A DNA stretch of 12,033 nt, from the UHGV virus genome UHGV-0311374, one strand, 5' to 3'. A program made the translations under genes and the position numbers. Under the pieces are notes generated by a model, which saw nothing but the letters and a program-made list of their open reading frames with translations, did not search any database and was not told the DNA's origin. Numbering within the stretch: the first letter of the stretch is position 1; every line of letters starts with the position of its first letter. Below are positions 599 to 11,738 of this stretch, one piece after another. This stretch comes from a virus.

Positions 599-884
599 AA
601 ACCGCTTGCAAAAAATTATCACGGGGCTGTATGCTTCCCCCGTCGCCCACATGGCGACCGGGTTTGACAGCCTGAATACTACAGCGGACAGCCGCTTACA
701 TTCCGATATGCGGTTTTTTTGTGTCCGTAAACCTACCCATACCCGCATTATGGCGGGGCGTAACGGGGGAGCCTTTGCGCTCGCTGGTTCCTGTAGTGCC
801 AGTCTGTCAACCCTGTTACGTCTCGCCACCATGTTTGACAGCGTAGTAGCGAGACTCCTTAATTTCACTACAGGAGCCTTTCAC

Positions 885-1374: not shown

Positions 1375-1674
1375 ATGAGAACATATTTATCTGGCTTGAC
1401 TGCCAGCGGTTATGCACACCCAAAAATTATCCCAGGCGCTATTTATCTGGATAAGAACGGTAACAGAGTAACGGTAAAAGAACTGATGTTTGACCGTGTG
1501 TATTTTATTCGTGATGGCTATTCATTTCATAGTTCGCTGAACGTGGAGATCTTTATTAGCAGATTCAGGCGGGAAATCCCGCCTTCCAGAAATAACCATG
1601 TGCCATGTATGGATGTTGATAAAAAACTACAGGAACTGAAAAACATGATTGCCGCGTGGAGAGAGCAGAAATGA
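1375..1674 (+). CDS. Hypothetical small protein, 99 aa (possibly DUF4222-like)
   Basis: ATG at 1375 with GGGGA upstream; stop overlaps the primase start (ATGA at 1671-1674); motif YLDKNGNRVTVKELMFDRVYFIRDGY resembles what I recall of small DUF4222 proteins found next to satellite primases; AT-rich. Confidence 0.5.
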   Translation: MRTYLSGLTASGYAHPKIIPGAIYLDKNGNRVTVKELMFDRVYFIRDGYSFHSSLNVEIFISRFRREIPPSRNNHVPCMDVDKKLQELKNMIAAWREQK

Positions 1675-3794
1675 AAAAAGCGCCAAATTTAAAACACCAG
1701 CCACGTGACAAAATGACGGAAGTCATCATTTTTGCGGGTAGTGATGCGTGGGCACATGCGAAGCAGTGGCAGGAACAGGACGGGCGACTGGCTGGCGATA
1801 ACGTGCCTCCTGTCTGGCTTGGAGAGCAACAACTTGCCGAACTGGATAAGCTGCAAATTGTGCCGGAAGGCCGAAAATCAGTACGCATATTCAGGGCCGG
1901 ACATCTTGAGCCAGTAATGATCAAGGCGATTGGTCAGAAGCTGGCGGCGGCAGGCGTACAGGATGCAAATTTTTACCCTGATGGAATGCACGGTCAGGAG
2001 GTGGAGAACTGGCGCGAATATCTGGCCCGTGAGCGGCAGAATCTTTCTGATGGTCTGGTTATTGAGTTTCCGGTAAAGAAAAAAGATACCGGAAGTCATA
2101 GCGATGACGAATTAAAGCCACGCGTTGAAAGTCGCGCCGATGGTGTTTTCTGGGTAACGCCCAAAGTGGATAAGCAGTCAGGCGAAATTATCCGGCCTGA
2201 GACGTGGTTATGTTCTCCGCTTGAACTACTGGGAACGGGGACGATCGGTAAAGAGCATTACCGCGTGATGCGCTGGAAAAAAACCGCAAACCATGAAGTC
2301 ATCACAATGGCGATCCCGTGTGGTGGTATCGGCGACCGTGACGGCTGGCGGTTACTTAAAGATCACGGGCTGAACGTGACAACCAACGGCAAATACAGGG
2401 CAATCCTGGCGGACTGGATGCAGTTAAGCGGAAGCCATGAGGAATGGCAGTTAAGCACAACAACGGGCTGGCATTTTGGCGCGTACATCATGCCGGACGG
2501 TTCGATCATTGGTGATTCTGAAAAACCGATCCTGTTTACCGGAAAAAGCGCCGCGATTAACGGTTATTCCGTGGCGGGTACGGCGGAGGGCTGGCGCGAG
2601 AGTGTGGCGCGGCTGGCTGGCGGTAATGCCTCAATGATGCTGGGTGTGGCAACGTCACTGGCAGCGCCTTTAATTGGCCTTGTGGGTGCTGACGGCTTCG
2701 GGGTGCATCTTTTCGAACAGTCATCGGCAGGTAAGACCACCACGCAGAACATCGCATCAAGTTTATGGGGAGAGCCGGACGCGCAGCGGCTGACCTGGTA
2801 CGGCACGGCGTTAGGTATTGCCAATGAGGCCGAGGCCCATAATGACGGGCTTTTACCACTGGATGAGATAGGCCAGGCCGGAAATGCGCGGGAAGTGTCA
2901 ACGTCTGCTTATACGCTGTTTAACGGTTCAGGGAAATTGCAGGGGGCGAAGGATGGCGGCAACAGGGAGATCAAACACTGGCGAACGGTGGCAATCAGCA
3001 CCGGAGAAATGGACGTTGAGACATTCCTCAAAAGTGAGGGGATAAAAGTTAAGGCGGGGCAGCTTGTCCGACTGCTTAACGTTCCGATGGAAAAAGCCAC
3101 GAAATTTCACGAATACAGCAACGGTAAGGAACATGCTGACGCGTTAAAGGATGCCTGGACAGCAAATCACGGGGCGGCGGGTCGTGAGTGGGTTAAATGG
3201 CTGGCAGGCCACCAGCAGGAGGCAAAGGACACGGTAAGGGAATGCCGCGAACGGTGGCGCAACCTGATACCGGAGAGTTACGGCGAGCAGGTCCACCGCG
3301 TGGGTGAACGTTTCGCCATACTGGAGGCCGCGCTTGTGCTTTCCTGTCATGTAACTGGCTGGGTCGTGCAGGAATGCCGCGACGCGATACAGTATAACTT
3401 TAATGCCTGGGTGAAGGAGTTCGGCACGGGTAACAGGGAATTTAAACAGATGGTTGAACAGGCTGAGGCGTTTTTGTCGTCGTTTGGGTTTAGCCGCTAC
3501 CTTCCGTACCCCAATACAGATGAGCGTGATTTACCGATTAAAGAGCTTGCCGGATACAGAAAAGGGAGCATTCGCAACGAAGATGACGAGATGCGCTATT
3601 ACACGTTCCCGCACGTGTTTGAGAGTGAGATAGCGAAGGGATTTAATCCGGCGCATTTTGCGCGTGCCCTGGATGCTGCCGGAATGCTGGAGAAGGGAAG
3701 CGATCGCCGATACAAAAAAAAGGCGCTGGGCAAGATTGGGGGTAAGCAGCATGTTTTTTACGTGCTGATGTTCCAGCCTGATGATGAAGATTAA
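1671..3794 (+). CDS. Replication initiation protein, primase/helicase-like (P4 alpha / PICI Pri-Rep type), 707 aa
   Basis: Long ORF; ATG at 1671 preceded by GGAGAG (the track's 1656 start is an upstream GTG); Walker A-like motif SSAGKTT in FEQSSAGKTTTQNIASSLWG; sits immediately upstream of an iteron array, as expected for a satellite or plasmid-type initiator. Confidence 0.8.
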   Translation: MKKAPNLKHQPRDKMTEVIIFAGSDAWAHAKQWQEQDGRLAGDNVPPVWLGEQQLAELDKLQIVPEGRKSVRIFRAGHLEPVMIKAIGQKLAAAGVQDANFYPDGMHGQEVENWREYLARERQNLSDGLVIEFPVKKKDTGSHSDDELKPRVESRADGVFWVTPKVDKQSGEIIRPETWLCSPLELLGTGTIGKEHYRVMRWKKTANHEVITMAIPCGGIGDRDGWRLLKDHGLNVTTNGKYRAILADWMQLSGSHEEWQLSTTTGWHFGAYIMPDGSIIGDSEKPILFTGKSAAINGYSVAGTAEGWRESVARLAGGNASMMLGVATSLAAPLIGLVGADGFGVHLFEQSSAGKTTTQNIASSLWGEPDAQRLTWYGTALGIANEAEAHNDGLLPLDEIGQAGNAREVSTSAYTLFNGSGKLQGAKDGGNREIKHWRTVAISTGEMDVETFLKSEGIKVKAGQLVRLLNVPMEKATKFHEYSNGKEHADALKDAWTANHGAAGREWVKWLAGHQQEAKDTVRECRERWRNLIPESYGEQVHRVGERFAILEAALVLSCHVTGWVVQECRDAIQYNFNAWVKEFGTGNREFKQMVEQAEAFLSSFGFSRYLPYPNTDERDLPIKELAGYRKGSIRNEDDEMRYYTFPHVFESEIAKGFNPAHFARALDAAGMLEKGSDRRYKKKALGKIGGKQHVFYVLMFQPDDED

Positions 3795-3816
3795 TCCCCT
3801 GTGTGAGAAAAAAAAT

Positions 3817-4154
3817 TGCGGGTTATGCGGGTTATCCTGTGTATAAGTGTATTAAGTGCATGAATATAAAGGAAACCAATAACCCGCACGTAACCCGCAA
3901 AAGGGCATTTATAACCCGCAAAAGCACGATTATAACCCGCAGGCGAATAACTGAAGTAACACCGGACAGTCATGCGTAACCCGCAGAAAAAACCCCGTTT
4001 GCGGGTTATTTTGAGCGTTTTGCGGGTTACGTGGTGAGCAAATAATAAACAGGGTGTTTTGCAAAATACTGATATAAAAGGATAAAAAATGGTTAGCACG
4101 CTAAGATAACCCAATAACCCGCATAACCCGCACATGTTTCTATATATATATATA
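3817..4154. repeat. Iteron array and AT-rich tract, putative origin of replication
   Basis: 9-bp TAACCCGCA in forward orientation at 3880, 3891, 3912, 3933, 3977, 4115, 4124 (degenerate ATAACCCAA at 4106) and as reverse complement TGCGGGTTA at 3817, 3826, 4000, 4021; followed by (TA)7 at 4141-4154; directly downstream of the primase gene. Confidence 0.75.
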
Positions 4155-4168
4155 AATTGAGGTGGCAA

Positions 4169-4420
4169 ATGACCAGAACACGCAGAGACAGAACAGAGCC
4201 AAAATATAAAGCGTTAGACATGACTGAGCACACCTTAAAGGTGGCAATCAGAACGATAGACCGCCACACGCGGGAAGGATACGCGAAGGAACATCCCGAC
4301 CTGATAAGCGCATTCATGACCACGGCGGCGGCAAACTTTTCCACGCTGACAGAACGGGATATTGCCGAAGCGGAACAGGTAACAACCATCAACGTTAAAA
4401 CCGGAGAGCAGACAGCATGA
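4169..4420 (+). CDS. Hypothetical protein, 83 aa
   Basis: ATG at 4169 with GAGGTG 5 nt upstream (the track's 4157 start is TTG); stop overlaps the next start (ATGA at 4417-4420); no family recognised. Confidence 0.5.
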   Translation: MTRTRRDRTEPKYKALDMTEHTLKVAIRTIDRHTREGYAKEHPDLISAFMTTAAANFSTLTERDIAEAEQVTTINVKTGEQTA

Positions 4421-4827
4421 CAGCACAGATAGCAGCTTACGGGCGGCTGGTGGACGACCCGCAGGTAAAACAGACCAGTAAGGGCACACCGATGACGCTG
4501 GCGCGTATGGCGGTATCGTTGCCATGTAGTCAGGCGCAGGATGGGCAGGCGACGTTATGGCTATCGGTCATCGCATTTGGTAAGCAGGCCGACTTCCTGG
4601 CTAAACATCAAAAAGGCGACGTTGCCAGCGTATCCGGCACGATGCAGGTCAGCCAGTGGACCGGACAGAACGGGGAAACGCGGCAGGGTTATCAGGTTAT
4701 TGCAGACAGCGTAATCAGTGCCCGTGCGGCACGTCCTGGCGGGAACAGACGCAAAACCACAGGCACACAGGGTAATCAGCCACCAGCGGGAGGCGATGAC
4801 CCTTACGGTGATGATATTCAGTTCTGA
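4417..4827 (+). CDS. ssb: Single-stranded DNA-binding protein (SSB)-like, 136 aa
   Basis: N-terminal IAAYGRLVDDPQVKQ and central WLSVIAFGKQADFLAKHQKGDVASVSGTMQVSQWTGQNGETRQGYQVIADSV parallel the OB-fold region of E. coli SSB; Gly/Pro-rich linker; acidic C-terminal tail DDPYGDDIQF resembles the SSB DDDIPF tip. Confidence 0.7.
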   Translation: MTAQIAAYGRLVDDPQVKQTSKGTPMTLARMAVSLPCSQAQDGQATLWLSVIAFGKQADFLAKHQKGDVASVSGTMQVSQWTGQNGETRQGYQVIADSVISARAARPGGNRRKTTGTQGNQPPAGGDDPYGDDIQF

Positions 4828-4837
4828 GGGGGTGACG

Positions 4838-5110
4838 ATGGTACATGACCGCATAGCGGAGGAACTCGAGGCAAAAGGCTTTTACCGGAGGGCGTCGGCG
4901 CGATGGGGTGAAGTCATGCTGCTGGTGGAGACAGACAAGGAACGGCATCAGGTTACGATGCGACGGCTGGAATGTTCCAGGAAGGCACAGAAGCCACCGG
5001 AGCCGCCGGATAACTTCGGAGACCTGAGAAAGGCAGTAGATCGCACTTATGCTGAAATGGGTATAGATGGTGTAAGCGATGAAATATGGCGTAATTACCC
5101 AGACAGCTAA
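4838..5110 (+). CDS. PerC-family-like transcriptional regulator, 90 aa
   Basis: ATG at 4838 with GAGGGGG upstream; N-terminus MVHDRIAEELEAKGFYRRASARWGEVM resembles the conserved N-terminal region of PerC-type activators as I recall it; followed by a terminator. Confidence 0.5.
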   Translation: MVHDRIAEELEAKGFYRRASARWGEVMLLVETDKERHQVTMRRLECSRKAQKPPEPPDNFGDLRKAVDRTYAEMGIDGVSDEIWRNYPDS

Positions 5111-5115
5111 TCAAC

Positions 5116-5138
5116 AGCCGGAGCAATCCGGCTTTTTG
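5116..5138 (+). terminator. Rho-independent terminator-like hairpin
   Basis: AGCCGGA (5116-5122), loop GCAA, TCCGGCT (5127-5133), then TTTT, 6 nt after the stop at 5108-5110. Confidence 0.6.
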
Positions 5139-5359
5139 TCATTTTTTGTAAATTATTTGTTCGTGGTTGTTCCACGTTGTTCACTGACAGGATCGGCATA
5201 TTTTACCCGAACTGAATCATGAGTATTCTCGCCCGTGGTGCCAGGACGCTGGGGCCACTTTCCCGCCTGTTAATGTGCTCGCCAATATTCATTACCAGGC
5301 GGGAAAACGATCGGTGCGATTGCTGATTTCCTTATGAAAAACGGTTGAGTTTTTGCCGC

Positions 5360-5396
5360 GTCCTGGAGTTCCTTACTTAACCCCAGGACTTTTTTT
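5360..5396 (+). promoter_or_regulatory. Hairpin plus T7 run abutting the capsid start codon; the only SD-like AGGA lies in its 3' arm
   Basis: GTCCTGG (5360-5366) pairs with CCAGGAC (5383-5389) around a 16-nt loop, followed by TTTTTTT (5390-5396) and ATG at 5397. Confidence 0.35.
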
Positions 5397-6554
5397 ATGC
5401 CGAGAATAATCGAATTACGCCAGCAGAAAACCGCCATTAAAAATCAGATGCGCGACATGCTGGAGAACGCGGAAAAAGAAAACCGCAGCCTTAACGATGC
5501 TGAGGGCGCAAAATTTGACGAATTACGCGCTAAAGCTGAATCACTCGATAAAGACATCTCCCGCCTTGAGGCCGTTGCTGACGAAGAGCGCAGTAAACCA
5601 GGCAAAAACAGCCAGACCACTGACCCCGCCGAACTACGTCACTACATTCTGACAGGTGAAACCAGCGCATTGAGTACAGGCGTTCCCGCTGATGGTGGTT
5701 ATACCGTTATCCCCGAACTGAACACCGAAATCATGCGAATGCTGACGGATGAATCCACCATGCGCCGCATCTGTACCGTGAAGAAAATCAGCAGCAACGA
5801 GTTTAAGCAGCTTGTTTCCGCTGGCGGTGCGACCGTTAACCACGGTGAAGAGGGTAAGGCACGCGAACAGACCAGCACCCCGCAGATTAACGAGGTGAGC
5901 ATTAAGCTGTATCCGGTCTATGCGTACCCGCGCACCACGCAGGAAATCGTGGATTTTTCCGATGTGGACATCCTTTCATGGCTGACGGGCGAGATTGGCG
6001 ACACCTTCACGGAAACCGAAGAAAGCGATCTGGTTGTGGGCGACGGTGACAAAAAAGCAAAAGGCTTTTTATCCGTACCCCGTGCAGAGAAGAACGACAA
6101 AGAGCGTGATTTTGGTACGTTGCAGGTAATTAAACCTTCCGAATCTCTGGCGTGGACATCTGCGGACCCGCTGATCGACCTGAAATTTGCATTACGTAAA
6201 AAATACCGCAAAAACGCGGTCTGGGTGGTTAACTCCACGACGGCGGCAAAACTCCAGAAGGTGAAGAACGCGAACGGTGATTACATCTGGCGTGACCGTT
6301 TACAGGCGGGTGATCCTGATACGTTGCTGGGCCTTCCGGTCGAATATCTGGAGTTTATGCCTGATAACGTTATTGCCCTGGGTGACTTCAAACGCGGTTA
6401 CTACATTGTTGATCACGAAACAGGTGTTCGCACCAGACCGGACAACCTCACAGAGCCGGGCTTCATCAAAATTTTCACGCAGAAATATTTAGGCGGTGGC
6501 GTGGTGGATTCGAACGCGATCAAGATTCTGGAACTGCCACAGGACGACGATTAA
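5397..6554 (+). CDS. Major capsid protein, HK97 fold, with N-terminal coiled-coil delta/scaffold domain, 385 aa
   Basis: N-terminus MPRIIELRQQKTAIKNQMRDMLENAEKENRSLNDAEGAKFDELRAKAESLDKDISRLEA is typical of a delta domain; GGYTVIPELNTEIMRMLTDESTMRRICTVKK matches the conserved HK97-family capsid region; followed by protease and portal genes. Confidence 0.85.
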   Translation: MPRIIELRQQKTAIKNQMRDMLENAEKENRSLNDAEGAKFDELRAKAESLDKDISRLEAVADEERSKPGKNSQTTDPAELRHYILTGETSALSTGVPADGGYTVIPELNTEIMRMLTDESTMRRICTVKKISSNEFKQLVSAGGATVNHGEEGKAREQTSTPQINEVSIKLYPVYAYPRTTQEIVDFSDVDILSWLTGEIGDTFTETEESDLVVGDGDKKAKGFLSVPRAEKNDKERDFGTLQVIKPSESLAWTSADPLIDLKFALRKKYRKNAVWVVNSTTAAKLQKVKNANGDYIWRDRLQAGDPDTLLGLPVEYLEFMPDNVIALGDFKRGYYIVDHETGVRTRPDNLTEPGFIKIFTQKYLGGGVVDSNAIKILELPQDDD

Positions 6555-6564
6555 CAGCATACAG

Positions 6565-6593
6565 AAGGGGCTTAAAAGCCCCTTTAGTGTTTT
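6565..6593 (+). terminator. Terminator-like hairpin after the capsid gene
   Basis: AAGGGGCTT / AAGCCCCTT palindrome (6565-6584) followed by TAGTGTTTT; located between the capsid stop (6552-6554) and the protease start. Confidence 0.5.
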
Positions 6594-7166
6594 ATGGGTG
6601 AAAAAATTATGAAGAGTATGGAAATCCGGTCATCGGAAATCACCACCAGCGCCAGCAACACGCTTACAGGCTACGTTGTTCGCTGGGATAACCTTTCAGA
6701 GCTGCTATGGGGGGAGTTTTACGAAAAATTCCAGCGGGGAGCGTTTACTGAATGGCTTGCGGCGGGTAATGACGTTCGCGGCCTGTATGAGCATGACCAC
6801 AGCATGTTGCTGGGGCGTACCCGTTCCGGCACGCTGAAACTGGAAGAGGACGAAACAGGGTTACGCTTTGAACTGACGCCACCGGATACCAGTACAGGGC
6901 GTGACGTTATCGAACTGGTTAAGCGTGGGGACATCTCGGGGATGAGCTTTGGCTTTCGCTCCCGCAAGGATGTATGGGATACCACAACAGATCCATGCGT
7001 GCGCACCGTGCTGGTGGCGGAACTGTACGAAATTACCGTTACATCGGTACCGGCTTACCCCGATTCCGGCGTGGAGCTGGCCCGCCGTTCCCTGTATGAG
7101 CAGCACCCCGAAAAAATGCCGCGTGCGGATAATCGCCGCTGGTGGGCGGATTTAGCGGGGGTGTGA
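6594..7166 (+). CDS. Prohead maturation serine protease, HK97 family, 190 aa (alternative start ATG 6609)
   Basis: GYVVRWDNLSE, GAFTEWL, YEHDHSMLLGRT, LKLEEDETGLRF and ISGMSFGF match the pattern of HK97-type prohead proteases. Confidence 0.85.
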   Translation: MGEKIMKSMEIRSSEITTSASNTLTGYVVRWDNLSELLWGEFYEKFQRGAFTEWLAAGNDVRGLYEHDHSMLLGRTRSGTLKLEEDETGLRFELTPPDTSTGRDVIELVKRGDISGMSFGFRSRKDVWDTTTDPCVRTVLVAELYEITVTSVPAYPDSGVELARRSLYEQHPEKMPRADNRRWWADLAGV

Positions 7167-7167
7167 T

Positions 7168-8379
7168 ATGTGGCCTTTCAGAAGAAAAAAAGAGCAGCGC
7201 AGCATGACGCTTGATGAGTTTATGGCGCTGGCTGGCACATCGAACACGGGGGCGGGTGAGTACGTATCATCGGGGACAGCGGAATCACTGCCCGCCGTCA
7301 TGAACGCCGTCACGGTCATCTCTGAGGCGGTGGCTACCATGCCGTGTTACCTGTACCTGGTACGCAATGAGAAGGGGAAGGAGGCCCGAGAGTGGCTTGA
7401 TTCTCATCCGGTCGATCACATCCTCAACGAGCGCCCGAACTCGTGGCAGACTCCCTACCAGTTTAAGCGAATGATGATCCGCCACTGCCTGTTAAACGGT
7501 AATGCTTATGCGGTGATTCAGTGGGGGCGTGATGGTTTTCCGGTCGCTTTGCATCCTTACCCGCCGCAGTCGGTGAACGTTGAGCAGACAGGTGAGCATA
7601 ACTGGCGCTACTGCATCACTGACGCCTACACCGGAAACACCCGCAACTATTTACCGTGGGAGGTTCTCCACCTTCGTTACTCCACGGATGACGGTTTTAT
7701 GGGGCGCTCACCTGTAACCATCTGCCGCGAATCGCTGGGGCTTGGGCTGGCCCAACAACGCCACGGCGCGAGCGTGATGCGTGATGGCATGATGGCGGCA
7801 GGGGTTATCACGTCAGGCGAATGGCTGGACGGCGTGAAGGGCAAACAGGCATTAGCCGCGCTGGAACGCTACAAAGGGGCCAGAAACGCCGGAAAAACGC
7901 CCATCCTTGAAGGGGGTATGAGCTATCAGCAGCTGGGCATGAGTAATCAGGATGCTGAATGGCTGGCCTCCCGTCGCTTCACCATTGAAGACATCGCCCG
8001 AATGTTCAACGTCTCGCCGATTTTTTTGCAGGAATACAGCAACAGCACCTACAGCAATTTCAGCGAGGCAAGCCGCGCATTTCTCACCATGACGATGCGC
8101 CCGTGGCTGGCGAACTTTGAGCAGCAGATAAAAAACGCCCTGCTGGTGGCCTCGCCTGTACCTGGTATCCGGTATCAGGTTGAGTTTGACAGCGCGGACC
8201 TGTTACGGGCCACACCTGGCGAACGCTTTGCCACCTATGAACGCGGCATCAAATCCGGCGTTATGTGCCCGAACGAAGCCCGCGAACGTGAAGGGCTGTC
8301 CCCGCGTGATGGTGGTGATGAGTTCAGCCAGGCATGGAAACAGGAAGTAAAAATCAGCGAGGGAGAAAAACAGGAATGA
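7168..8379 (+). CDS. Portal protein, HK97 family, 403 aa
   Basis: About 400-aa ORF immediately downstream of the protease, with one nucleotide between stop and start; size, position and sequence character fit HK97-family portals. Confidence 0.8.
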   Translation: MWPFRRKKEQRSMTLDEFMALAGTSNTGAGEYVSSGTAESLPAVMNAVTVISEAVATMPCYLYLVRNEKGKEAREWLDSHPVDHILNERPNSWQTPYQFKRMMIRHCLLNGNAYAVIQWGRDGFPVALHPYPPQSVNVEQTGEHNWRYCITDAYTGNTRNYLPWEVLHLRYSTDDGFMGRSPVTICRESLGLGLAQQRHGASVMRDGMMAAGVITSGEWLDGVKGKQALAALERYKGARNAGKTPILEGGMSYQQLGMSNQDAEWLASRRFTIEDIARMFNVSPIFLQEYSNSTYSNFSEASRAFLTMTMRPWLANFEQQIKNALLVASPVPGIRYQVEFDSADLLRATPGERFATYERGIKSGVMCPNEAREREGLSPRDGGDEFSQAWKQEVKISEGEKQE

Positions 8380-8714
8380 ACATAGGGCGACTGCGTGACA
8401 GGGTAACGATTCAGACCCTGAAACAGACCAGAGCCATGACGGGCGAAATACTCGAAACGTGGGTGGACGGTCACACACTCTGGGCAAGCGTGAACATGAT
8501 CAGCAGCAAGGAGGCCATTTCATCGGGTGTAGAACTGGCGACTGGAACGGTAAGGGTATGGATACGCTACAGGAAGGACATCAACGCCACCAGCCGGATA
8601 AAGGTCAATACGGGGCCGCTGGCGGGGCTTGTACTGAATATCATCGGGCAGCCGCTGCCGGATGCCGCCAGGACACGCCTTGAAATTCTTTGTCGTGAGG
8701 GCGCGGAAAAATGA
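8376..8714 (+). CDS. Head-tail adaptor / head closure protein, 112 aa
   Basis: ATG at 8376 overlaps the portal stop (ATGA); product MNIGRLRDRVTIQ...LWASVNMISSKEA...VRVWIRYRKDINATSRI fits the head-tail joining family pattern. Confidence 0.75.
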   Translation: MNIGRLRDRVTIQTLKQTRAMTGEILETWVDGHTLWASVNMISSKEAISSGVELATGTVRVWIRYRKDINATSRIKVNTGPLAGLVLNIIGQPLPDAARTRLEILCREGAEK

Positions 8715-9007
8715 CAGAAGAACTTATCACCCTGGAAGAAGTGAAACTCCATTGCCGCATCGATGGCGATGAGGAAGACCAGTTAATCAGCGGATACATT
8801 GCCGCATCGCTTGAGGCGTGCCAGATACACATAGGCAGGCGCTTTGATGACGGGCTGGAGTTCACGCCAGCCATAAAGATTGGCTGCATGATGTTTATCG
8901 CTCACCTGTATGAGAATCGCCAGATTGTCGCGGATAACGCAAAAACACGCGTACCCATGACGATTGGCGCACTCTGGACGGCTTACCGTGATGTGGGGGT
9001 GTACTGA
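8711..9007 (+). CDS. Head-tail connector protein (gp6-like), 98 aa
   Basis: ATGA overlap with the upstream gene; LEEVKLHCRIDGDEEDQLISGYIAAS...IAHLYENRQ matches the gp6-like connector family pattern. Confidence 0.75.
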   Translation: MTEELITLEEVKLHCRIDGDEEDQLISGYIAASLEACQIHIGRRFDDGLEFTPAIKIGCMMFIAHLYENRQIVADNAKTRVPMTIGALWTAYRDVGVY

Positions 9008-9447
9008 TGCCGTGGCAACCATTAAGACGATGTACAGAACCAGGCTGCAACAGGCGAGTTAAGTCCGGCAAGTGTGAGGAGCACAGACGCAGCGCACGCC
9101 AGCAGCAGGACAGCCGGAGAGGCAGCAGCAGGGAGCGAGGGTATACGAGGCAGTGGGAGAAATACCGCGCCATGTATCTGAGTAAAAACCCGTTATGTGC
9201 GCATTGCCTGGAAAAAGGAATATACACGCCCGCCGTGGTGGTGGATCACATTATCCCCATCGATGGCGGTAATGATGTTCTCTTCTGGCCTGAGTGGAAT
9301 CATCAGCCATTGTGCCAGGCGTGTCATAACCAGAAAACGAAATGGCTTGATCCGGCAACAAAAAGCAAGCGTGCCGCAGGTGGATTTCATGAAGAGGAAG
9401 AACGGGCCGCTAACCGCAATAACTGGATGTATGACGCTGATGAATGA
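9007..9447 (+). CDS. HNH endonuclease (terminase-associated), 146 aa
   Basis: TGATG overlap with the upstream gene; Cys-rich N-terminus (CTEPGCNRRVKSGKCEEH) and HNH core CAHCLEKG...VVDHIIPIDGGNDVLFWPEWNHQPLCQACHNQK; sits just upstream of terS/terL as in HK97-like cos phages. Confidence 0.85.
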   Translation: MPWQPLRRCTEPGCNRRVKSGKCEEHRRSARQQQDSRRGSSRERGYTRQWEKYRAMYLSKNPLCAHCLEKGIYTPAVVVDHIIPIDGGNDVLFWPEWNHQPLCQACHNQKTKWLDPATKSKRAAGGFHEEEERAANRNNWMYDADE

Positions 9448-9736
9448 GCTGGAACAAAACCGCCTTATCCGTGGACTTATAAGGCAGCGTGACGCATGGA
9501 AGACACAGGAAACAGGGCATAAAGATAAAGCGTCAGGACGCGCAGAACGCATCACAGCGACGCGATTAACCGACCGTGACCGCGAGGTTATGGAATGTTT
9601 CCGCAATCGCTGATGAGGTAGCCGGACGGGGTGGGGGGAGTTTTCAGGACGAACCCGACCCCGCCCAGAACCGACCGCCTCCTCAAATTTTTATGCACGG
9701 GAATTTTTTGAAAAATAATCTGGCGAAAAAATAAGC

Positions 9737-10093
9737 ATGGCAAGACCACCGAAAGCCCCCGCCTACCTGGATGACATCGCCGTGAAGCAGTGGCGGGAAA
9801 AATCGCGGCAGCTTGCGGAACGGGGAGACCTGACCCCCGCCGACTGGAGCAATCTGGAACTGTATTGTGTCAACTACTCCATTTACCGGAAAGCCGTCGC
9901 AGACCTTGCGGCGCGCGGGTTCAGCATTGTTAACAGTCAGGGCGGCGAGAGCAGAAACCCCGCATTAAGCGCGAAATCAGACGCTGAAAGGGTGATGATA
10001 AAAATGGCCTCCTTGCTCGGTTTTGACCCGATAAGCCGTCGTAAAAATCCACCGGAAACAGAAGAAGAGGACGAGCTTGACCGCCTGGAATAA
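9737..10093 (+). CDS. terS: Terminase small subunit (P27-family-like), 118 aa
   Basis: Product fits the P27-type small terminase pattern (W...LTPADWSNLELYCVNYSIYRKA...SRNPALSA...LLGFDPISRRK); directly upstream of and overlapping the large terminase. Confidence 0.8.
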   Translation: MARPPKAPAYLDDIAVKQWREKSRQLAERGDLTPADWSNLELYCVNYSIYRKAVADLAARGFSIVNSQGGESRNPALSAKSDAERVMIKMASLLGFDPISRRKNPPETEEEDELDRLE

Positions 10094-11738
10094 GTACGCA
10101 GAAGACGTAAAAACGGGCAAAATTCCGGCCTGTAAACGGCTGAAACAGGCCGTTAAACGGTACTTTTCGGACCTTAAAAACCCCCTTTATACGTTCGAAC
10201 GTGAGGCCGTGGAGCGGTTTATTGCCTTTTCCAGGGTGTGCCCGCACGTAAAAGGGCCGATGCGTGGCAGACCCATTGAGCTGGAGCCGTGGCAGCAGTT
10301 CGCCTTTGCGTGCATCCTCGGCTTTAAGGTTAAGGCCACCGGACGGCGCAAATACACGAGCGCCTTTATCGAAGTGCCGCGCAAAAATGCGAAATCCACG
10401 ACCGCCGCGATTCTGGCTAACTGGTTTCTGATTATGGAGAACGGGCAGCAGGATATCTACACCGCAGCGGTGAGCCGTGACCAGGCGCGGATCGTTTTTG
10501 ATGATGCGCGTCAGATGTGCCTTTTATCCCGACCGTTACGCAGGCGGGTGAATATTCAGGCCCACAAGGTGATGCACCCGAAAAGCAACAGCCTGTTAAA
10601 GCCGCTGGCAGCAAAAGCGGCAACCATCGAGGGAACAAACCCCAGCCTTTCCATCGTGGACGAATACCACCTACACCCCGATAACGGCGTTTATTCCGCG
10701 CTTGAGCTGGGGATGGGCGCACGTCCCGAAGGGCTGTTATTTGCCATTACTACATCGGGCAGTAACGTCGTTTCAGCCTGTAAACAGCACTATGATTATT
10801 GCTGCCAGATCCTGGACGGCGAAGAGGTCAACGATTCAATTTTTGTACTGATTTACGAACTGGACGACGAAAACGAGGTTGATGATCCGGCGATGTGGAT
10901 AAAGGCTAACCCTAACATCGATGTTTCCGTCGATCGTGAAAAACTGGCCTCAACCATCCAGAAAGCGCGGGGTATTCCGTCGCAGTGGGTGGAGATGATG
11001 ACAAAGCGATTTAATATCTGGTGCCAGGGGGCTACCCCGTGGATGGGTAACGGCGCATGGGCTGAGTGTGCCGGAACGTTCACGGAGGAAGATTTACACG
11101 GCCAGGAGTGTTACGCGGGGCTGGACTTATCATCAACCAGCGATATTTCCAGCGTGTGCTATGCCTTTCCGGTCGGTAAAACCATTATGCTGGTTTCCCG
11201 TCACTATCTGCCGGAATTTCAGCTACAGAACCCCGCCAATAAAAACCGCGCTGTCTATCGCCAGTGGGCTAAAGCAGGCTGGATACGCACAACGCCTGGC
11301 GACTGCATTGATTACGACCGGATCAGAGATGACATCATGCAGGACGCGGAGAAATTTAATATCAGGCTGGTGGGCTTTGATACGTGGAACGCCACGCATC
11401 TCAGGACGCAATTACAGGGGGCAGGTTTTGAGGTGGAGCCGTTCCCGCAAACCTACCTCAGATTCAGTCCGGCGGCGAAATCGTTCGAAGTTTTTGTTAA
11501 CCGCAGGGTGATTGTGCATCGTGGCGATCCGGTGCTGTCTTGGTCGATGAGTAACGTCGTGATGCAGAGTGACGCGAACGCCAATATCAAGCCGAACAAG
11601 AAAAAATCACCGAACAAGATAGACCCGAGCGTGGCGGCGCTGATGGCGTTTGGTACATTCCAGGCAGAGCATGAGGATTTTGCTTTTGATATAAGCGACA
11701 GCCACCGCCAGAAACTGGAAGAATTTAGCGGGGTGTAA
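10077..11738 (+). CDS. terL: Terminase large subunit, 553 aa, apparent TTG start overlapping terS by 17 nt
   Basis: N-terminus WNKYAEDVKTGKIPACKRLKQAVKRYFSDL and the long ATPase/nuclease-sized ORF; the first in-frame ATG (10260) would remove this conserved N-terminal region, so the TTG at 10077 or an unconventional initiation is implied. Confidence 0.85.
   Translation: MTAWNKYAEDVKTGKIPACKRLKQAVKRYFSDLKNPLYTFEREAVERFIAFSRVCPHVKGPMRGRPIELEPWQQFAFACILGFKVKATGRRKYTSAFIEVPRKNAKSTTAAILANWFLIMENGQQDIYTAAVSRDQARIVFDDARQMCLLSRPLRRRVNIQAHKVMHPKSNSLLKPLAAKAATIEGTNPSLSIVDEYHLHPDNGVYSALELGMGARPEGLLFAITTSGSNVVSACKQHYDYCCQILDGEEVNDSIFVLIYELDDENEVDDPAMWIKANPNIDVSVDREKLASTIQKARGIPSQWVEMMTKRFNIWCQGATPWMGNGAWAECAGTFTEEDLHGQECYAGLDLSSTSDISSVCYAFPVGKTIMLVSRHYLPEFQLQNPANKNRAVYRQWAKAGWIRTTPGDCIDYDRIRDDIMQDAEKFNIRLVGFDTWNATHLRTQLQGAGFEVEPFPQTYLRFSPAAKSFEVFVNRRVIVHRGDPVLSWSMSNVVMQSDANANIKPNKKKSPNKIDPSVAALMAFGTFQAEHEDFAFDISDSHRQKLEEFSGV

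Follow-up and report, generated by a model that had tools for sequence, protein, structure and literature searches.

Background

EcCIEDL933, also known as CP-933C, O-island 51 (OI-51) or Sakai Sp7, is the prototype of the capsid-forming PICIs (cf-PICIs) and belongs to E. coli O157:H7. The gene alpA is needed for its induction and transfer (10.1101/2022.09.08.507074). Moreover, induction that depends on a helper phage and on AlpA, as well as the formation of small capsids carrying helper tails, have been shown for this island, which is a different allele from the one analysed here (10.1101/2022.09.08.507074). AlpA turns on the PICI genes downstream as well as its own promoter (PMC6092414). Both an SSB and PchE were previously annotated in OI-51, PchE being the name given to its PerC-like gene (PMC3378721).

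In the EDL933 chromosome the island is located between roxA and phoQ, and the annotated locus contains, 5' of the DUF927 primase gene, an integrase gene, a gene of the AlpA HTH type, small genes and a DUF4222 gene. Other related islands are the classical E. coli PICIs (EcCICFT073 type) and the islands with a lambda-type capsid and TerS, such as the one of O157:H7 SS52. They have AlpA and the series orf83-ssb(-perC) after replicase and origin in common with the island described here, and the SS52 island shares its attachment site with the EcCIEDL933-type island. Nevertheless, their packaging module is a different one, with a lambda-like capsid, a decoration protein and TerS.

LEE1 is the promoter activated by PerC and by PchA-C. 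Regarding PchE, which belongs to group 3, it has little or no effect on ler/LEE1 (PMC6265319, PMC5931665, PMC11773190), and it represses csgD/curli and promotes flagella (PMC6265319, PMC7369912).

Here we analyse a stretch of DNA of 12,033 nucleotides from the virus genome UHGV-0311374 (the window), focusing on three genes located between its replication origin and its capsid operon, for which an earlier note, made from the sequence, had proposed functions.

Results

The window and EcCIEDL933

The window is an E. coli cf-PICI of the EcCIEDL933 type. Its nucleotide identity to EcCIEDL933 is ~97%, and the region of the three genes matches positions 1686076-1688227 of E. coli O157:H7 EDL933 with 97.6% identity and the same gene order. 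In both islands a DUF4222/RgdR-like gene, the DUF927 primase gene and the iteron ori are followed by orf83, ssb, perC and the capsid operon, which is ordered capsid, protease, portal, connectors, HNH, TerS and TerL. We considered as a cf-PICI an element of satellite size that has its own capsid, protease, portal, head-tail connectors, HNH, TerS and TerL, without tail or lysis genes; according to the EDL933 annotation, these packaging genes correspond to the ORFs at 5397-11738. The DUF927 pri-rep gene (1656-3794) and the iteron ori are also inside the window, which stops short of the island's right-hand end; it does not include int and alpA, both of which the ~97% identical island of EDL933 carries. 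The protein alleles of the window are present in E. coli assemblies.

Comparing the proteins with those of EcCIEDL933, 134 of the 136 residues of SSB, 89 of the 90 of PerC and 380 of the 385 of the capsid protein are identical, whereas for orf83 the identity is merely 73/83. There are other differences between both islands. In EcCIEDL933, perC is separated from the capsid control region by a cassette of ~350 bp, consisting of a gene of 74 aa with a copy of the orf83-ssb-perC terminator on either side, and the window is without it. The RgdR homologue of EcCIEDL933 has RGD where that of the window has PGA, and the SSB tip is DGIPF in EcCIEDL933 and DDIQF in the window.

All three genes carry a RefSeq annotation. 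We found many alleles of each of them and much of the variation between ssb alleles was synonymous, therefore orf83, ssb and perC are real genes under constraint. They are already annotated genes of a well-studied satellite, and as such the finding is an ordinary one that was already known. The features of the region are collected in Table 1.

Table 1. Features of the region from the replication origin to the capsid gene (positions in the window)
Feature	Position	Strand	Evidence or remarks
Replication origin, with 11 exact TAACCCGCA iterons of both orientations around an AT-rich stretch	3817-4132	.	Iteron count against shuffles
AT-rich (TA)n run, directly 5' of the orf83 ribosome-binding site	4141-4157	.	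Sequence
orf83	4169-4420	+	ORF; 83 aa
ssb; product with OB fold (residues 5-99), short linker and acidic tip DDPYGDDIQF (rare P135Q)	4417-4827	+	ORF; 136 aa; PF00436, TIGR00621
perC; family member orthologous to the group 3 Pch gene pchE of E. coli O157:H7	4838-5110	+	ORF; 90 aa; PF06069; 89/90 identity
Intrinsic terminator: 7-bp GC-rich stem, GCAA loop, T-runs	5116-5150	+	-12.6 kcal/mol, z -3.45; closes orf83-ssb-perC
Control box of the capsid operon: TTTTGTAAATTAT, then three direct TTGTTC repeats with 10-nt spacing	5144-5182	+	Conserved across cf-PICIs
Hairpin in the capsid-operon leader, GACG loop	5235-5258	+	Conserved; two sequence types differ by three compensatory pairs
HK97-type major capsid gene, first of the packaging operon	5397-6554	+	380/385 identical to the EcCIEDL933 capsid protein

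Three packed genes at the end of the replication module

Positions 4169-5110 are the distal end of the replication module, formed by three co-oriented and tightly packed genes after the primase-helicase gene and the origin. The three ORFs were found on the + strand exactly where the earlier note had placed them, and the layout that it described, from the origin through the three genes and the terminator to the capsid operon, was recovered as well, with the iterons located and the terminator hairpin with its T-run placed at 5116-5133. The TGA stop of orf83 overlaps the ATG of ssb (ATGA at 4417-4420), and the ATG of perC, which is preceded by the strong Shine-Dalgarno sequence GGGGGTGA, is 10 nt past the ssb stop. 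Between perC and the capsid gene there is an intergenic region of 286 nt (5111-5396). A sigma-70 scan of the + strand found a promoter neither for the three-gene unit nor for the capsid operon, and an Rfam scan of 3800-5400 gave no match to an RNA family.

Regarding the origin, when one mismatch was allowed the iteron TAACCCGCA was observed 12 times, against a mean of 3.1 in shuffled sequences, and none of the 200 shuffles reached 12. The layout of iterons and AT-rich DNA matches the PICI ori organisation reported before (PMC6092414).

Profile searches of all three products confirmed the SSB and PerC families that had been suggested from the sequence, and assigned the 83-aa product to phrog_1231 only.

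A divergent SSB

The ssb product was above the cutoffs of both PF00436 (E 4.2e-17, 62.6 bits, cutoff 26) and TIGR00621 (57.7 bits, cutoff 53.95), and its closest solved relatives were the SSBs of Thermotoga and Thermus, E. coli SSB being matched with an E of 2e-6. As the E. coli chromosomal SSB, it belongs to the OB-fold SSB family and has an acidic C-terminal tip ending in Phe. However, the identity between them is 26% (BLASTP), the window protein has 136 aa and a much shorter linker compared with the 178 aa of E. coli SSB, and it is encoded by a satellite beside its own origin.

In E. coli SSB the residues W40, W54, F60 and W88 contact ssDNA, and H55, the position of ssb-1, is at the tetramer interface. 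In the BLASTP alignment with the E. coli reference, whose sequence was checked against 1eqq, W48, F54 and W81 of the window SSB align with W54, F60 and W88, which means that three of the four ssDNA-contacting aromatics are kept; the equivalent of W40 is missing owing to a shorter loop, and that of H55 is Leu. Judged by profiles and alignment, this protein belongs genuinely to the bacterial-type SSBs, although it has diverged.

The SSB tip allele

The consensus SSB tip, D-D-D-I-P-F, docks into partner proteins. The C-terminus of the window SSB is ...GDDPYGDDIQF, where the acidic residues, Ile and the terminal Phe are present and Gln replaces the penultimate Pro. Its sole differences from the SSB of EcCIEDL933 are G133D and P135Q, and the latter is a single-nucleotide allele (CCG to CAG). 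The earlier note had taken this non-canonical ending as a sign of a private SSB. Actually, DDIQF is real in the window, but the tip of the family is canonical, with the consensus D-[D/G/N]-I-P-F. The ending IPF was present in 101 of the 108 full-length representatives of 90% clusters, and among 71 distinct IMG/VR contexts we counted 59 IPF (~83%), 10 ISF and just 2 IQF. The exact SSB protein of the window was found on 16 contigs of the protein collection, and one other member of its cluster on 421. We rejected DDIQF as a family trait on these counts; P135Q is an allele-level variant.

Position 135 corresponds to P176 of E. coli SSB. The mutation ssb-113 (P176S) of the latter weakens partner binding and impairs chi binding and replication (PMC3045619). 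The window SSB has Gln where ssb-113 has Ser, and the natural Ser alleles at position 135 of the satellite SSBs reproduce the ssb-113 change. By analogy, P135Q should weaken the contacts between the tip and its pocket. The altered partner interactions that had been proposed are therefore a fair hypothesis for the allele of the window, which is changed at the ssb-113 position, although they do not extend to the family.

Among 54 ssb nucleotide alleles D132, I134 and F136 were invariant, and positions 133 (D/G/N) and 135 (P/S/Q) varied. When a neighbour-joining tree was made from the rest of ssb, the Ser and Gln states appeared scattered over it, on very short branches and in islands that recombine freely. 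This scatter would fit recurrent mutation, although it is not a proof of it.

One explanation of such a pattern is that the SSB serves mainly for interference or counter-defence and not for replication. With IQF or ISF, a crippled tip, the protein would cover ssDNA and recruit no host partners, or it would sequester or evade factors that recognise the SSB tip, and helper-phage replication or host immunity would be affected. The polymorphism precisely at 133 and 135 among invariant neighbours, the scattered Ser and Gln alleles and the impaired chi binding of the change that the Ser allele reproduces (PMC3045619) would agree with it. Nevertheless, ~83% of the distinct contexts retain the canonical IPF, other ssb codons are equally polymorphic, and with short branches and rife recombination the apparent recurrence may be an exchange of 3' ends. 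Furthermore, a PADLOC search gave no match, and the gene adjoins the origin and the replicase, as expected of a replication protein. We consider a role in interference, and the effects on helper or immunity that it would bring, highly unlikely. It is also doubtful, although somewhat less so, that the penultimate residue, for which Pro, Ser and Gln alleles are found on several backgrounds among near-identical E. coli PICI SSBs, is a natural tuning point at which selection weakens or re-targets the docking to host or helper proteins. If this were true, the satellite SSB would be a selective ssDNA coat and not a full hub protein. The reading that we prefer for this gene is that of a replication protein.

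The orf83 family

The earlier note had left the 83-aa product unassigned, and the searches gave no functional family. Its sole profile match was phrog_1231 (3e-51), of unknown function, and no family was found in Pfam, NCBIfam or PADLOC, nor in Pfam for its distant relatives. By profile search we collected 620 small proteins among the 50%-identity representatives, with the shared core ID..FGxGYAKxHPELIxAFMxTAA; they are phrog_1231-like and unnamed, and annotation was found on none of the 620. The AlphaFold2 model obtained with a diverse alignment (pLDDT 85) is a helical hairpin of two long helices; an earlier model from a less diverse alignment was poor (pLDDT 59). The Foldseek search of the model against PDB and BFVD gave just insignificant or uncharacterised matches. 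The identification of orf83 with RgdR was also considered and rejected, RgdR being the DUF4222 protein encoded farther upstream.

In order to know the context of these genes, we compared ~250 related loci, whose modules were typed by tblastn, and the counts given here were made on 100 distinct loci. In 95 of these 100 loci, all of them from E. coli satellites, orf83 precedes ssb. The pair combines with three replicases (the DUF927 primase, a primase of another family and a RepA-type helicase) and with two unrelated packaging modules, namely the HK97-type cf-PICI operon and a lambda-like set of capsid, decoration protein and TerS. The profile-based locus scan for orf83 yielded close relatives only. 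The contexts of the distant relatives were short or heterogeneous and without linkage to ssb; for instance, in the distant satellite L176 an orf83 relative lies between alpA and the DUF927 primase gene. Thus, orf83 encodes a helical protein that is conserved; its translation is coupled to that of ssb, and in the satellites of E. coli the two genes nearly always go together. The coupling to ssb suggests a role associated with replication, and most likely orf83 is a replication or regulatory accessory.

The packing of the three genes, which share one terminator and abut the iterons, could also be understood as one unit that controls the origin. The orf83 product would be, for example, an adaptor for loading SSB or the primase, and PerC a regulator of firing or copy number. 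The translational coupling of orf83 and ssb and their co-occurrence in 95/100 loci are in line with such a unit. However, PerC is dispensable in 38 of the 100 loci with the same orf83-ssb pair, the trio is found with three unrelated replicases, each of which is expected to have its own origin, and the distant orf83 relatives, as the one of L176, occur without ssb. A common origin-control unit appears extremely unlikely to us. The preferred reading keeps orf83 and SSB linked to replication and sets PerC apart.

PerC is PchE

The identification of a PerC-like protein was correct, as PF06069 is matched end to end (E 5e-45, 152.1 bits, cutoff 22.6; residues 1-89 on profile positions 1-89 of 90). 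The protein is identical in 89 of 90 residues to WP_000233299.1 of EDL933, encoded in CP-933C, and both the island and the position within it match. There is no material difference from PchE of enterohaemorrhagic E. coli, which is one residue off, occupies the same island position and belongs to the Pfam family PerC; by this identity and position, the perC product of the window is PchE. A structure search gave no solved relative of PerC. We also observed a weak similarity of PerC to the ANR family (E 0.006), below the cutoff.

In the loci compared, PerC follows ssb in 27 of the 29 HK97-type loci, 35 of the 64 lambda-type loci and none of the 7 others. A gene for ProQ/FinO is found in its place in two loci (L003 and L143), and in Shigella flexneri a deletion joins the first 25 codons of SSB to the C-terminus of PerC. 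The exact PerC protein of the window is present in five lambda-type loci, so that the identical allele occurs with both packaging types. Moreover, we searched for cf-PICIs of other genera through the capsid protein and found them in Rosenbergiella, Citrobacter, Erwinia and Gilliamella (66-74% capsid identity), with no PerC within 7 kb on either side of the capsid gene start.

These data bear on the idea of the earlier note that the PerC-like protein is the late activator of the island, which would turn on a promoter in 5111-5396 and so drive the capsid/packaging operon. Proteins of the PerC family are transcriptional activators (PF06069), perC is directly upstream of the packaging module and PerC is present in those 27 of 29 E. 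coli HK97-type loci carrying the window-type SSB. An activator is also plausible because the + strand of the intergenic region has no sigma-70-like promoter. Nevertheless, the identical PerC allele is linked to a lambda-type packaging module with an unrelated upstream region, and PerC is absent or replaced by ProQ/FinO while the capsid control region is unchanged, although the PerC-less examples from E. coli and Shigella include decayed islands (in L003 the capsid gene is a pseudogene, and L006 is what a deletion left behind). In the four other genera both operon and control box are retained with no PerC. In addition, pchE has a basal expression without induction and drops 2-7-fold upon SOS or prophage induction (PMC6265319, PMC5931665), and the repeats of the control region are common to the region upstream of alpA, the demonstrated master activator (PMC6092414; 10.1101/2022.09.08.507074). 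The comparison with related islands thus argues against PerC switching on the capsid genes: the late-activator idea is disfavoured, not refuted, and we regard it as improbable. The near-constancy of PerC in the E. coli cf-PICIs, which were sampled through the window-type SSB, could reflect function rather than linkage.

The control region of the capsid operon

The control box (Table 1) occurs once per cf-PICI in 6 genera, 217-253 nt 5' of the capsid gene and regardless of which gene precedes it, and all the cf-PICIs compared have the invariant sequence TTTGTAA[A/T]T[T/A]AT. In most of them direct repeats spaced by 10 nt follow, which are more variable. Three TTGTTC copies are present in the window, at 5157-5182, and in EDL933, L003 and Shigella, and two copies with a wider spacing in L002; three of the other genera have repeats of the TACCC type, and in Gilliamella there are no obvious repeats. 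A hairpin with three compensatory pairs is also common to the control regions of these cf-PICIs. The upstream region of the lambda-type and SS52 islands is unrelated, without the TTTTGTAAATTAT/TTGTTC box.

The TTGTTC array recurs in inverted orientation ~270 nt upstream of alpA in EcCIEDL933, L003 and L006. Since the repeats are common to the upstream region of alpA, the capsid operon is probably governed by AlpA, which would be a better candidate than PerC. As a lead for future work, AlpA, and not PerC, might drive the capsid operon of cf-PICIs directly through the TTGTTC repeats. These repeats are missing before the packaging genes of a lambda-type island whose AlpA and PerC are the same. 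We also looked for covariation between AlpA and the repeats in the cf-PICIs with TACCC repeats (L007-L009), and no alpA gene was present in the flanks examined. The array is found as well near the right end of EcCIEDL933 and L006, with a shorter match there in L003; given these copies near the island ends, the repeats could instead serve Int or an excisionase as sites of recombination.

Discussion

The region is the end of the replication module of a cf-PICI, and we consider it likely that SSB and orf83 are linked to replication, that PchE is a regulator carried as optional cargo, in a slot of variable content that separates the replication module from the packaging one, and that the capsid operon is controlled separately. 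We infer the roles of SSB and orf83 from position and homology. According to this model, AlpA expression triggered by the helper would lead to transcription that crosses the primase gene and the origin and continues into orf83-ssb-perC. After this AlpA-dependent induction, the SSB would coat the ssDNA that arises when the primase-helicase of the island fires the adjacent origin, and its acidic tip would recruit the host replisome and repair partners, a link to host enzymes that the P135Q allele may weaken. PchE would act on host genes rather than on the capsid operon of the island, modulating in the lysogen the surface and motility genes of the host (repression of csgD/curli, flagella), and the capsid operon would be switched on separately through the TTGTTC box.

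The useful outcome is thus a negative one, as the idea of PerC as a late activator misfits the comparative data and the conserved control region points to AlpA. The leads that remain are modest, namely the tip polymorphism of the SSB, the AlpA-type repeats at the capsid operon and the widespread unnamed family of orf83. If the AlpA-type repeats and the ssb-113-like tip polymorphism were confirmed, they would bring a modest gain in our knowledge of the timing of capsid expression in satellites and of how their replication is coupled to the host.

Mosaicism of the satellites and the region around ssb

The E. coli satellites that carry this orf83-ssb cassette (L018-L175, which are IMG/VR contigs, and L001-L005) are strongly mosaic. 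We found three replicase types alongside orf83-ssb, namely a DUF927 primase, another primase and a RepA-type helicase, and these are freely combined with two packaging modules, even within one attachment site, roxA/phoQ, as EDL933 and strain SS52 illustrate.

Regarding SSB itself, a comparison of the window gene (4417-4827) with some 115 related loci shows that the tip of the protein varies at residues 133 (D/G/N) and 135 (P/S/Q), with residues 132, 134 and 136 invariant. The alleles with serine at position 135 carry the substitution known from the laboratory mutation ssb-113.

In some capsid-forming islands (cf-PICIs) the place that PerC has in the window is taken by a gene of the ProQ/FinO family, and therefore the slot after ssb gathers differing small regulators. 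The ssb-perC pair has also been altered in two loci. The Shigella flexneri island encodes a chimera of 53 aa, in which the first 25 residues of SSB are joined to the C-terminus of PerC as the remnant of a deletion, and in L093, another related locus, SSB is read through into PerC to give an ORF of 230 aa. Both are products of decay or rearrangement of the pair.

Coordinates of the features in the window and in related loci (L001, EcCIEDL933; L006, Shigella flexneri)
Feature	Window	Related loci	Remarks
a1/b1 target of C4	629-678		Rfam match; overlaps an isrK-like match
C4 antisense RNA	746-833		Rfam match, 72 bits
99-aa DUF4222 protein gene	1375-1674		Homologue of RgdR (ECs1581)
Site of ~350-bp cassette	~5111-5135	L001 10396-10790	Present in EcCIEDL933, absent from the window
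Capsid control box	5144-5182	L001 10796-10833; also L002, L003, L006-L010	Conserved 5' of the HK97-type capsid gene
Leader hairpin, GACG loop	5235-5258		Conserved in the capsid-operon leader
Two strong leader hairpins	5259-5306 and 5360-5396		In the capsid leader
ProQ/FinO-family RNA-chaperone gene		L003 5850-6380; also L143	In place of the window's PerC
ssb-perC chimera		L006 6173-6334	Deletion product
Further TTGTTC arrays		L001 4545-4575 (inverted), 18395-18420; L003 ~630-660; L006 ~1075-1101, 14203

Early region

An Icd-like ORF immediately precedes the C4 RNA and its target, and together they form a P1/P7-type immunity/antisense module in the early region of the island. RgdR is the LEE regulator of OI-51; the EDL933 protein has the RGD motif to which it owes its name at residues 20-22, whereas the window homologue has PGA. 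In strain ED1a a CGD variant is inactive, and by analogy the window protein may fail to activate type III secretion.

Control of the capsid operon

The control box is kept in cf-PICIs of six genera, in one copy per island and independently of the identity of the preceding gene. Its invariant part is the TTTGTAAATTAT motif, followed in most islands by direct repeats at 10-nt spacing, which are TTGTTC (three copies) in E. coli and Shigella and of the TACCC type in Rosenbergiella, Citrobacter and Erwinia; the Gilliamella box shows no obvious direct repeats. Directly 5' of the box, cf-PICIs of five genera have homologues of a 74-aa gene (MPMKFDEILKQRDKYH...), which belongs to no Pfam family. This gene is carried by the ~350-bp cassette that EcCIEDL933 has and the window lacks, and in EDL933 it is flanked on either side by a copy of the perC terminator.

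Downstream of the box, the inner stem of the GACG-loop hairpin is CCAG/CTGG in the window versus CUCA/UGAG in five other islands, that is, three compensatory pairs, from two sequence types only. As for the two strong hairpins, the first, at -23.5 kcal/mol (z -5.3), is formed by an inverted repeat of 17 nt, and the second is a stem followed by T7, which ends at the capsid ATG and encloses the sole AGGA Shine-Dalgarno-like sequence. Together they may act in attenuation or in masking of translation.

L001, L003 and L006 each have the TTGTTC array of the box a second time, around 270 nt 5' of alpA, and a third site lies near the right end of L001 and L006, L003 having a shorter match at 12845. The occurrence of the array at the capsid box, upstream of alpA and near the right end suggests one common DNA-binding protein at all these sites, with an AlpA/excisionase-like protein or Int as the candidate.
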